A DNA stretch of 64,000 nucleotides from an uncultured Candidatus Bathyarchaeia archaeon (GCA_964480955.1 CAYZRW010000007.1:827-64826); one strand, 5' to 3'; counted from the stretch's first letter, positions 12,180 to 33,627 are shown. Program-made: numbers and translations. Notes: generated by a model from the letters alone, not told the origin.

Positions 12180-13307
12180 ATGAACGTGAAGCTTCAGGTC
12201 GGTTCAGCTGTCTATGAAGTCAAACCTGAAAATATGGAAGCCTATCTACAGGGGCTGCTTAGGTGCCCTGTGAAGTTAGTATCGATCGAGAAGCTGGGGG
12301 AGGGATTTCACAATGCTGGTTTTCTCATAGTCTTCACCAGCGGTCGCAGGACTGGGAGAATCGTCATGAGGATCGTTCGTGGAGATACTGGCTGGGGGCA
12401 TGACTACTTGGGCGATCGCTGCGGAGTTCTGCTACTCCAACACAGACTGATGCAGATGGCGCCACCAGGAACATGCTCCAAGTCTCTCGACGTAGCCGCC
12501 ATGATGGCTGACGGCTCGATCAACTCTATCGGCGACTCTGTCGAATTCCTCCATTTCGTGGAGGAGGTGTCTGAGATAGAGAATACACCATACTCAGCCG
12601 ACCTCTTCGCCGTCTCAGACAGAGGAAGTCTATCCGATACGGACAGGCTTCGCGTCAAGATAGTAGCGGACTACTTGGCAGACCTACACTCCACCAAGAA
12701 ACCCAGTCCGAACCTGTACATGCGACATATTCGAGACCTCATAGGTCACGGGGAGATGCTCATGGGGGTCATAGATACGTATCCAGACCCTGATGATTTG
12801 AAATTCACTTCGAGACAGGAGTTCGAGAGGATAGAGTCCGAGTCTGTCCGCTGGAGAAACAGGATAAAACACCTCTACCACAGATGCAGCAGAATTCACG
12901 GAGACATGCATCCTTTTGGAAATGTGAGATTCACCAAAGACAACTCGCTTTTGGCCCTGGACCTCTCAAGGGAGGAGTTCGGTGAACCCGCGGACGACGT
13001 CACGGGCATGAGCATAAACTACATCTTCTTCAGCATATGGAGACACGGAGAGTTGATATCGCCTTTCAAGGAGCTCTTCAACATATTCCTTGAGAGGTAC
13101 TTGGAGAGAACCAGAGATCTCGACATCCTCAAGGTGATGGCGCCGTTCTACGCATTCAGAGGGACCGTGGTCGCTCACCCTATCTACTACCCGAAACTCG
13201 ATCCGAGTAGAAGGAGGAAGATCTTTAACTTCATAATCAACGTCCTGAGTGAGGAAGAGTTCGACCCCGCAAAGGTCGAATCTTACTTGGAGACCAAACC
13301 AAGTTAA
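12180..13307 (+). CDS. Aminoglycoside phosphotransferase (APH)-like kinase
   Basis: LGEGFHN Gly-rich loop, RIHGDMHPFGN catalytic loop, GEPADD. Confidence 0.75.
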   Translation: MNVKLQVGSAVYEVKPENMEAYLQGLLRCPVKLVSIEKLGEGFHNAGFLIVFTSGRRTGRIVMRIVRGDTGWGHDYLGDRCGVLLLQHRLMQMAPPGTCSKSLDVAAMMADGSINSIGDSVEFLHFVEEVSEIENTPYSADLFAVSDRGSLSDTDRLRVKIVADYLADLHSTKKPSPNLYMRHIRDLIGHGEMLMGVIDTYPDPDDLKFTSRQEFERIESESVRWRNRIKHLYHRCSRIHGDMHPFGNVRFTKDNSLLALDLSREEFGEPADDVTGMSINYIFFSIWRHGELISPFKELFNIFLERYLERTRDLDILKVMAPFYAFRGTVVAHPIYYPKLDPSRRRKIFNFIINVLSEEEFDPAKVESYLETKPS

Positions 13308-32502: not shown

Positions 32503-32964
32503 ATGGATTACCTGGAGAGAGCTTTCAGAGCGATGATAAAGGAAGAAGTCAGAAGACTCAACCAGCACCTGCCGAGAACAAGGAAGACCCTAAAACATCT
32601 CCTTCAGGAACCTACACCGTCTGTGGAGACTCATGACGGAGGAAACATAGTAATTAAGAGGGAGGAATTGCAGAAACTGGCAAAAATCTTGCCGCCTAAC
32701 CTGCATGAGAAGCTCCAACTCCCAGTGATCGTTCAGAGGAGATTCGACCTTGGAAAATCTGTTTACACCGTATCCGGAAGCAAACTTGAGGAGTTCACTA
32801 TAAAGTACTTGCTTGGGCTCGCGGAGAACGACTTCGGCAATTATGAGGCTGAGGAAGTGTTTTACATCTACAAGCCGTATCTAATGGAGTTGATCCGAAC
32901 TATTCATTCCTTGATAGTGATAGGGTTCGGGACTCCTGAAGGTCTTACGTTAGACTCGCAGTAG
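32503..32964 (+). CDS. DUF61/UPF0216 family protein
   Basis: LNQHLP..RKTLK.LL.E..P......G; context next to fibrillarin. Confidence 0.7.
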   Translation: MDYLERAFRAMIKEEVRRLNQHLPRTRKTLKHLLQEPTPSVETHDGGNIVIKREELQKLAKILPPNLHEKLQLPVIVQRRFDLGKSVYTVSGSKLEEFTIKYLLGLAENDFGNYEAEEVFYIYKPYLMELIRTIHSLIVIGFGTPEGLTLDSQ

Positions 32965-33627
32965 CTTGCACTCTAGGTTTCTAAAGGTTCTCCACGTTCT
33001 CCTAACGATGGGCAGATCGCACCTGTTCCTGAGAATCCACTCCTTCACAAACCTGATAGTCTTTGGGTCTGACGGGTAGCCTGATCCGAAGTCGCCGTAG
33101 GTTTCTTGCAGACTCTCAATTATCTCGTCCCTCCTCACCTTGGCTAGAATTGAGGCTGCAGACACCACAGGATACTTCCTGTCGGCGTGATGCTCCGATA
33201 CAATTCTCAGAGGAGCCTCAAGTTGCTGGAGTATTTGACACGCGAATCTTTCCGGGCTTCTGTCAGGGGCGTCGACATAAGCTGTCTCAGGTCTCAGCTT
33301 GTTAAGGATCTTTGCGATGTACCTTGCCTCTAACAGGTTCAGTCTCATCATTGGTCTACCCCTCAGGACTATGGAGTCGATCTCTTGAGGCTCAATCTCC
33401 AACAGGACATGTTCCTGAGTCAGGCTGAGTATCTTTGGGGCCAGTCGACTTCTTGACTTTCTAGTCAGAAGTTTTGAATCACGAACGCCAAGCTGGTTCA
33501 GGTAAGGAATCCTATCTTCTCTCAGAATCAAACCTGCTATTACGAGTGGACCTATGAGTGGGCCTCTTGGGAAGCCGTCTCAGCTCGGCTTTCTCCCAGC
33601 CTCATCCACTCCAGCAACCTGAACCAT
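32950..33627 (-). CDS. rnhB: Ribonuclease HII with a 27-nt intron (exons 33627-33593 and 33565-32950; 216 aa)
   Basis: Spliced N-terminus MVQVAGVDEAGRGPLIGPLVIAG; also GVRDSK, YVDA, ADRKYPVVSAASILAKV.RD, GSGYPSDP. Confidence 0.93.
33566..33592 (-). other. Putative BHB-type (EndA-spliced) mRNA intron in rnhB, 27 nt, with in-frame TGA
   Basis: mRNA TGGG-AG^A-AAGCCG-AGCTGAGA-CGGCTT-CCCA-AG^A-GGC: helix TGGG/CCCA, two AGA bulges, 6-bp inner stem; removal gives GGG AGA GGC CCA (GRGP). Confidence 0.87.

Follow-up and report, generated by a model that had tools for sequence, protein, structure and literature searches.

How could an rnhB gene whose reading frame is broken by a stop codon within the active-site motif of its product direct the synthesis of RNase HII? 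This question is raised by a locus on the minus strand of the window, by which we mean the whole 64,000-nucleotide stretch of DNA from an uncultured Candidatus Bathyarchaeia archaeon that was analysed here. Read from an ATG at 33627, the frame gives MVQVAGVDEAGR, then nine codons (KPS-TGA-DGFPR) and then GPLIGPLVIAGL, from where it is open to a stop at 32950. A mechanical ORF listing starts the gene at a TTG at 33531 and yields a 193 aa protein without the N-terminal Asp-Glu, and only a 15-residue peptide could be made from the unspliced RNA. The read-through translation, with X placed at the TGA, matched TIGR00729 at 195.9 bits (cut-off 123.3) across profile positions 1-206 of 207 and PF01351 across model positions 1-198 of 199; this full-length match above the curated cut-off, which includes the N-terminal DEAGRG motif, places the product in the RNase HII family. 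Alignment with 1io2_A, a solved RNase HII of archaeal type, was contiguous apart from a gap of exactly nine extra residues, which falls between IAGIDEAG and RGPVIGP. Upstream lies an NTPase gene (PF03266; 33674..34249, minus strand), from whose end it is 47 nt to the ATG of rnhB. On the other side, rnhB is flanked by a DUF61 gene on the opposite strand (32503-32964, plus strand), and the 3′ ends of rnhB and the DUF61 gene converge with a 15-nt overlap at 32950-32964. Farther out from rnhB are fibrillarin-like and Trm1-like ORFs, which were named by eye from the ORF listing.

The interruption corresponds to a 27 nt segment that carries the in-frame TGA (33566..33592; this and all features given below for the gene are on the minus strand) and separates two predicted exons. 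Exon 1 (33593..33627) starts with the ATG and runs through 11 codons (MVQVAGVDEAG), the catalytic Asp-Glu among them, to the AG of an Arg codon, and exon 2 (32950..33565) contributes one base, 204 codons (GPLIGPLV ... LLRV) and the stop. Around the junctions we found the core of a BHB motif, in which two 3-nt bulges, one on either strand, enclose a 4-bp central helix that has an intron hairpin next to it on one side. The 5′ strand of this helix, TGGG (33595..33598), is exonic, being made of the last base of an Ala codon and a Gly codon, and pairs with the intronic CCCA at 33568..33571. Bulge 1 (AGA, 33592..33594) holds the predicted 5′ splice site after its second base; bulge 2 (AGA, 33565..33567) likewise holds the predicted 3′ splice site after its second base, and its third base would become the wobble base of the Arg codon; below 33565 comes GGCC at the start of exon 2. 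The inner hairpin of the intron (33572..33591) is composed of AAGCCG (33591-33586), an 8-nt loop, AGCTGAGA (33585-33578), and CGGCTT (33577-33572).

This arrangement had been put forward in a reading made before any comparison (hereafter the sequence-only reading), and our re-reading recovered base for base its 27 nt insert at 33566-33592 splitting the DEAGR/GP motif. We also found the same TTG start without Asp-Glu in the ORF track, the same ATG frame with the nine intervening codons between DEAGR and GPLIGPLV, and every element of the fold as it had been written (TGGG/AGA/AAGCCG(loop)CGGCTT/CCCA/AGA). The contention that the remainder of rnhB is intact held as well, since the 204-codon frame is open to the stop and the RNase HII model match is full length, and the EndA rule that had been claimed excises exactly this segment and leaves a contiguous DEAGRGP.

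We consider it very probable that 33566-33592 is an archaeal BHB intron in the rnhB pre-mRNA that is removed by EndA and RtcB, and splicing in the full sense, that is cleavage and ligation by these two enzymes, is the most likely fate of the transcript. On folding, the exonic TGGG would pair with the intronic CCCA to form the 4-bp central helix, which would be parted from the intron's own hairpin by the AGA bulge of the 5′ strand and from a weak exon-exon helix by the AGA bulge of the 3′ strand. A two-subunit EndA would cleave after the second base of each bulge and RtcB would ligate the exons, so that the Arg codon would be rebuilt as AG+A and the mRNA would encode a normal RNase HII whose DEAGRGP active-site motif is contiguous. 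The peptide predicted across the joined exons is VDEAGRGPLIGPLVIAGLILR.

The outer exon-exon helix in the window can be drawn either as GGC:GCC, which leaves a 4-nt bulge, or as one C-G pair, which leaves a bulge of 3 nt. Among the insert-bearing genes described below, the inner helix has 3-9 pairs in most genes and is 88-92% paired, and the outer helix has 1-3 pairs formed by bases that are fixed by coding; with so weak an outer helix, the motif fits the relaxed BHB better than the strict hBHBh' form. The BHB cannot be picked out by thermodynamic folding alone. Folding of a 71-nt context gave another structure as the one of minimum energy (z = -1.12), and in a 63-nt context both helices were recovered in a register shifted by one A-U pair, the strict BHB having an energy of -16.3 kcal/mol against -23.1 kcal/mol for this one-pair-shifted minimum-energy structure, which also contains a longer exon-exon helix (GAGUGG:CCACUC) that, judged by eye, is not kept in relatives. 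Searches of the window with Rfam at the gathering threshold and with ARAGORN each returned no matches, and the relaxed BHB (4 + 3 pairs) occurs 380,254 times on the two strands of the 1.8-Mb genome. As judged from sequence comparison, the non-randomness of the insert lies in the exact restoration of the catalytic motif and in same-site conservation and covariation in 58 genomes.

Inserts were found at the identical rnhB site in 58 genes from three phyla, comprising Bathyarchaeia and another class of Thermoproteota, Hadarchaeota and Asgard archaea. Among the rnhB loci of relatives, 16 of 29 carry the insert at the exact site and the other 13 have a contiguous DDAGRGP; it is also present in 8 of 80 rnhB loci taken from named genome records, those eight including records titled Hodarchaeota, Promethearchaeota (two), Hadarchaeota and an uncultured archaeon. 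A covariance model built from 24 insert sites (R1) gave full-length matches in 20 of 151 genomes of the class Bathyarchaeia, together with one 30-nt match to an insert-less gene, and in 9 of 66 Hadarchaeota genomes, together with two such 30-nt insert-less matches. Matches were obtained in 3 of 151 genomes sampled across the phylum, one of them from another class, and in 16 of 151 genomes of an Asgard phylum sample. There was at most one R1 match per genome in all samples, and rnhB is present as one copy per genome in the relatives searched. The sequence-only reading had named related genomes as the place to look for presence or absence of the insert and for compensatory changes in its stems, and both were found at this one site. 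We also noted that the inserts of the Asgard phylum (L136-L151, L074, L087 and L113) are nearly all exactly 30 nt long and A+T-rich, with a common core around TCGA and always an in-frame stop.

The 58 inserts range from 19 to 32 nt, with 23, 12 and 23 genes in the three modulo-3 length classes. Because 35 of the 58 shift the frame and each of the 23 in-frame ones contains a stop, the insert is by the evidence of these frames untranslatable in any of the genes. The in-frame TGA had been held to bar an unspliced product in the window, and the lengths and stops in relatives likewise rule out translation through the insert. A translated insertion, considered as a candidate explanation in its own right, was rejected on the same frame-shifting lengths and stops.

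Bulge 1 is AGA in 56 of the 58 genes and AGT in two, both Asgard (L142 and L145); the first two bases of bulge 2 are variable and its third base is A or G in every gene. All four pairs of the central helix can form in 52 genes and three of four in the remaining six, and the sequence of the helix tracks the synonymous third base of the Ala/Ser codon and that of the Gly codon, as seen in pair sets that include TGGG:CCCA, CGGG:CCCG, GGGG:CCCC, GGGG:CCCT, AGGG:CCCT, GGGT:GCCC, TGGT:ACCA and TGGT:GCTG. Covariation was scored in two alignments (A2 and A3), in which the central helix is 97-99% paired, with compensatory changes and six pair types at the first pair. In A2, a MAFFT alignment of 22 distinct rows that was not fitted to the structure model, 90.2% of cells were paired compared with 75.5% after shuffling; none of 500 shuffles reached the observed value, and controls in which the strands were slid gave 36-56%. 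The central helix in this alignment is 98.9% paired, its first pair being UA in 13 rows, CG in 4, AU in 2, GC in 2 and GU in 1. A3, a model-fitted alignment of 56 distinct rows that leans toward the model and draws on related genomes that are not independent, gave 91.3% paired cells compared with 69.0% after shuffling, again with 0 of 500 shuffles reaching the observed value. The A2 result is the safer of the two because A3 was fitted to the model structure and the genomes are related. In the inner helix, each of the five scored pairs varies between genomes on both of its sides, and the inner-helix sequences are unrelated between phyla.

The position of the cuts can be read from the codons on either side. 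D[ED][AS]GR codons stand directly 5′ of the insert in all 58 genes, and EndA canonically cuts after base 2 of the bulge. Cutting after this base restores the Arg codon (AG + A/G) in 58 of 58 genes and D[ED][AS]GRG[PSC] in 57; cutting after base 3 would still give Arg in 56 genes and would give Ser in the two with an AGT bulge, and cutting after base 1 or 0 would in most genes put Lys, Thr, Ile, Met or a stop in its place. The AGT-bulge genes L142 and L145 therefore fix the cut position, and of the rules tested only AG^A ... AG^A, as originally claimed, gives back the Arg codon throughout. Symmetric cuts within the bulges thus restore the coding sequence, other registers being worse, and the base-2 rule agrees with the published cbf5 boundary when it is applied to the cbf5 gene of this genome. 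The single gene in which the wider motif is not restored, L003 (2089-2144, minus strand), has TGG (Trp) for the Gly codon of DEAGR, which leaves its central helix with a mismatch. This copy may be in decay, may owe the change to an assembly error, or may be a variant that is tolerated.

If EndA cleaved the transcript and the exons were left unjoined, the motif would serve as a cleavage, decay or regulatory site and a truncated protein would be made from an internal start. Decay of mRNA that is initiated by EndA and proceeds without ligation is described for yeast in a passage of PMC10485636, which provides a precedent for such a fate. However, a protein started at 33531 would lack the catalytic Asp-Glu, RtcB is encoded in the genome, and both the D[ED][AS]GR codons of exon 1 and a purine as third base of bulge 2 are conserved in 58 of 58 genes. 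Conservation of the exon-1 codons and of the purine that completes the Arg codon makes sense only if the exons are joined, and we regard cleavage without joining as unlikely.

Alternatively, rnhB could be a pseudogene or a gene inactivated by a small insertion, as might be supposed from the in-frame TGA, from the truncated mechanical ORF without Asp-Glu and from the Trp substitution in the motif of L003. Against this, the site of the insert is identical in 58 genomes of three phyla, exon 1 retains its DEAGR codons, and the interrupted gene is the sole rnhB copy in each genome. The exon-2 frames are intact in 57 of the 58 genes (197-227 aa), and the other is truncated where its contig ends. Between insert-bearing pairs, the dN/dS of exon 2 is 0.09-0.26 in eight of the nine pairs for which it could be computed; the closest pair gives 0.56, and another pair was saturated. 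By this measure exon 2 is under purifying selection, and residues of the catalytic region are invariant across 23 aligned proteins that include both insert-bearing and insert-less forms. Loss of function by either route is thus very unlikely.

The AGA direct repeat at both ends of the window's insert and its internal palindrome also recall a DNA-level mobile mini-element, MITE-like and flanked by a 3-bp AGA target duplication, that came to lie in rnhB by chance. Such an element is highly improbable given that it is present as a single copy, the rnhB locus being the sole full match in the genome, that the direct repeat is not conserved, and that the inner sequences differ wholly between lineages while their pairing is kept. 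Translational bypassing, in which the ribosome would hop over the insert between matched AGA codons in the manner of phage T4 gene 60, is scarcely credible, since the AGA/AGA flanks, hairpin and stop of the window's insert that recall it are set against a second triplet that is AGA in just 5 of the 58 genes (AAA, ACA, ATA, ATG, AAG, ACG, TGA or GTA in the rest) and against covarying pairs that join exon bases to the 3′ end of the intron, as in a BHB, and do not join a take-off to a landing site.

Removal of the insert as a BHB intron would call for EndA and RtcB, and genes for both were found in the genome that contains the window (G000; 54 contigs, 1.82 Mb, 95.5% complete, one rnhB). PF01974 matched twice, in ORFs of 183 and 180 aa that each have N- and C-terminal domains; the two correspond to different halves of a two-repeat EndA model, one to the second and the other to the first, which fits a two-subunit enzyme. 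These EndA genes are located on contig C1 (locus L031, 105-656, minus strand) and contig C16 (locus L032, 1237-1779). RtcB was found at 583 bits. The attribution of the insert to an EndA-type intron in the sequence-only reading is therefore borne out as regards the enzymes, with both EndA subunits and RtcB encoded; as regards the motif, the outer helix is weak and the form fits a relaxed BHB. Two EndA genes are also present in four of five other insert-bearing genomes tested. The fifth (G300, Hadarchaeota, 0.8 Mb), which holds the insert-bearing locus L091, showed a single EndA-domain gene; either its assembly is incomplete or a one-subunit enzyme handles the BHB.

A second message of the same genome is interrupted in a comparable way. 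Outside the window, cbf5 is split at model position ~70 (contig C37, ~13186-13213; loci L163/L164) by a 19 nt insert, CCCT/AGA/GGC(CGAGGC)GCC/GGGG/AGA, which lies between GHGGTL and DPMVTGVLPV and, under the base-2 rule, divides the catalytic Asp codon between G and AC. According to a passage of PMC2738675, this is the site of the published crenarchaeal cbf5 intron. We found cbf5 in 37 of 41 genomes (G000 and 40 relatives of the same order): it is in two pieces in 31 of these, one of which (G028) has the pieces on different contigs, is a single match with one stop in five, and is uninterrupted in one. On this pattern, cbf5-type message splicing appears to be routine in the lineage.

Genome-wide filtering for BHB motifs in G000 took the 380,254 raw occurrences to 51,482 when ORF fusion was required and gave 601 under a looser bulge filter; such wide counts are far too unspecific for intron discovery. 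A narrow filter (length <=45 nt, bulge 1 AGA, bulge 2 A-N-R) left 18 candidates, of which homology backs only rnhB and cbf5. One of the 18 joins two genes that we take, from motifs recognised by eye, to be UvrB-like (contributing its end) and UvrA-like (contributing its start). The two rnhB exon flanks, used as a pattern with a gap of 0-27 nt, had no matches in a set of metagenome contigs from which the records of the genome itself may have been left out. When ARAGORN was run on G000 with its intron option, it reported only 26 tRNAs, 22 of them 'with intron' and several with implausibly long introns.

The rnhB insert is likely a new example of the very rare introns of archaeal protein genes. 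A BHB intron in the pre-mRNA of cbf5, the archaeal dyskerin homologue, was reportedly described in Crenarchaeota by Watanabe and co-workers in 2002. The relevant passages of a 2009 paper by Yokobori et al. (PMC2738675) report cbf5 introns from Desulfurococcales and Sulfolobales alone. As characterised there, the crenarchaeal cbf5 intron resembles the rnhB insert in being a short relaxed BHB within an ORF that interrupts codons of a catalytic motif, in occurring in hosts with a two-subunit EndA, in having both in-frame and out-of-frame lengths, and in a patchy distribution for which gain or loss has been proposed (PMC2738675); the cbf5 intron of G000 also shares the b(4)/AGA ... b'(4)/AGA layout. 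The two differ in that the rnhB splice falls within the Arg codon of DEAGR/G, whereas that of cbf5 falls in the triplet for the catalytic residue itself, and in that the 5′ exon of rnhB is tiny, with 6-29 codons in most genes examined. They differ also in range, the rnhB insert being found in Bathyarchaeia, Hadarchaeota and Asgard archaea, beyond the taxa given in those passages of PMC2738675, and its splicing being what we infer from sequence.

The BHB intron in the 5′-UTR of HVO_1309 in Haloferax volcanii, as reported in the sections of Schwarz et al. (2020, PMC7714728) that deal with it, is like the rnhB insert an mRNA substrate near the 5′ end. Unlike rnhB, it lies in an untranslated leader with the ORF uninterrupted, in a host with a homodimeric EndA, and the evidence for its processing comes from knock-down and in vitro cleavage (PMC7714728), whereas we infer that of rnhB. 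BHB introns of tRNA and rRNA have two 3-nt bulges with a 4-bp helix between them, and relaxed forms are handled by the (alpha-beta)2 and epsilon2 types of EndA, according to portions of Hirata (2019, PMC6379350). The rnhB insert has this same layout and presumably the same EndA and RtcB enzymes. In contrast to those introns, its substrate is a protein-coding message, and one central-helix strand and bulge 1 are made of codons. As this helix strand and bulge consist of codons (the Ala/Ser wobble base, Gly and Arg), protein and RNA structure constrain the same bases. In eukaryotes, HAC1 and XBP1 mRNAs undergo a stress-regulated, spliceosome-independent splicing that involves IRE1 and RtcB, which is also mentioned in PMC13149111. 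As in the reading preferred here for rnhB, a protein enzyme removes a short mRNA intron, a tRNA-type ligase joins the exons and the frame or content of the message is altered; the endonuclease is in that case IRE1 and the motif a twin stem-loop.

A full-text search of openly available articles, covering their main text, found no paper that connects a BHB intron with rnhB or with RNase HII. The sole co-occurrence of these terms in a text (PMC3082918) is unrelated in the portion concerned, and a 2026 preprint on Asgard tRNA introns is without mention of mRNA, RNase H or cbf5. The archaeal mRNA substrates of the tRNA-splicing endonuclease named in the pertinent sections of a 2023 review (PMC10485636) and of PMC7714728 are only cbf5 and the HVO_1309 leader, and the same sections hold that more probably remain to be found. 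The rnhB insert would be the second archaeal mRNA intron to interrupt an ORF, after cbf5, and much more widely spread. Gene callers truncate or split insert-bearing rnhB, and in many archaeal MAGs RNase HII may carry a wrong annotation or be counted as defective. In the 58 natural variants a covariation series is at hand for the rules by which EndA would recognise substrates on messages, and the insert offers a system for studying gain and loss of BHB introns and whether such mRNA splicing predates eukaryotes.

As a tentative guide to the history of the insert, we built a quick maximum-likelihood tree of 142 exon-2 proteins, rooted at the midpoint, from which one truncated sequence (L130), one with X residues (L020) and two with an intein (L026 and L030) were dropped and two duplicates (L009 and L084) excluded. 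In this quick tree the Asgard copies form one clade, in which 18 of 19 carry the insert, nine Hadarchaeota copies form another, and the insert-bearing Bathyarchaeia copies are interleaved with insert-less genes. Fitting presence of the insert to the tree needs 15 changes, at least five of which are forced by well-supported branches. This pattern, together with inner-helix sequences that are unrelated between phyla and Asgard inserts that are nearly all 30 nt, is compatible either with an old intron that was precisely lost many times or with the repeated acquisition of introns at a single site. Nested in the insert-bearing Asgard clade is an insert-less rnhB (L106) from a record titled Hermodarchaeota, which looks like a precise intron loss.

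More tentatively, and with the balance of our own judgement against it, we suggest that a single ancient intron predated the split of Thermoproteota, Hadarchaeota and Asgard archaea and has since undergone many precise losses, or else that a homing BHB intron has repeatedly invaded a single conserved sequence of the catalytic motif, GGN-AGA/GG; in the latter case the exon itself would supply half of the splice motif. If either were true, message splicing by EndA and RtcB would be old and general in archaeal gene expression, including that of the closest relatives of eukaryotes, rather than a crenarchaeal peculiarity confined to cbf5. Production of enzymes such as RNase HII and Cbf5 might in that event be gated by tRNA-splicing activity.

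One family belonging to the same order has an rnhB that lacks the BHB insert and carries an intein (PF14890) instead. The intein occupies residues 174-369 of a 416-aa frame at L030 (1516-2763, plus strand) and is also found in the rnhB loci of G022 and G036, so that on sequence evidence rnhB is host to two kinds of intervening sequence in related lineages.
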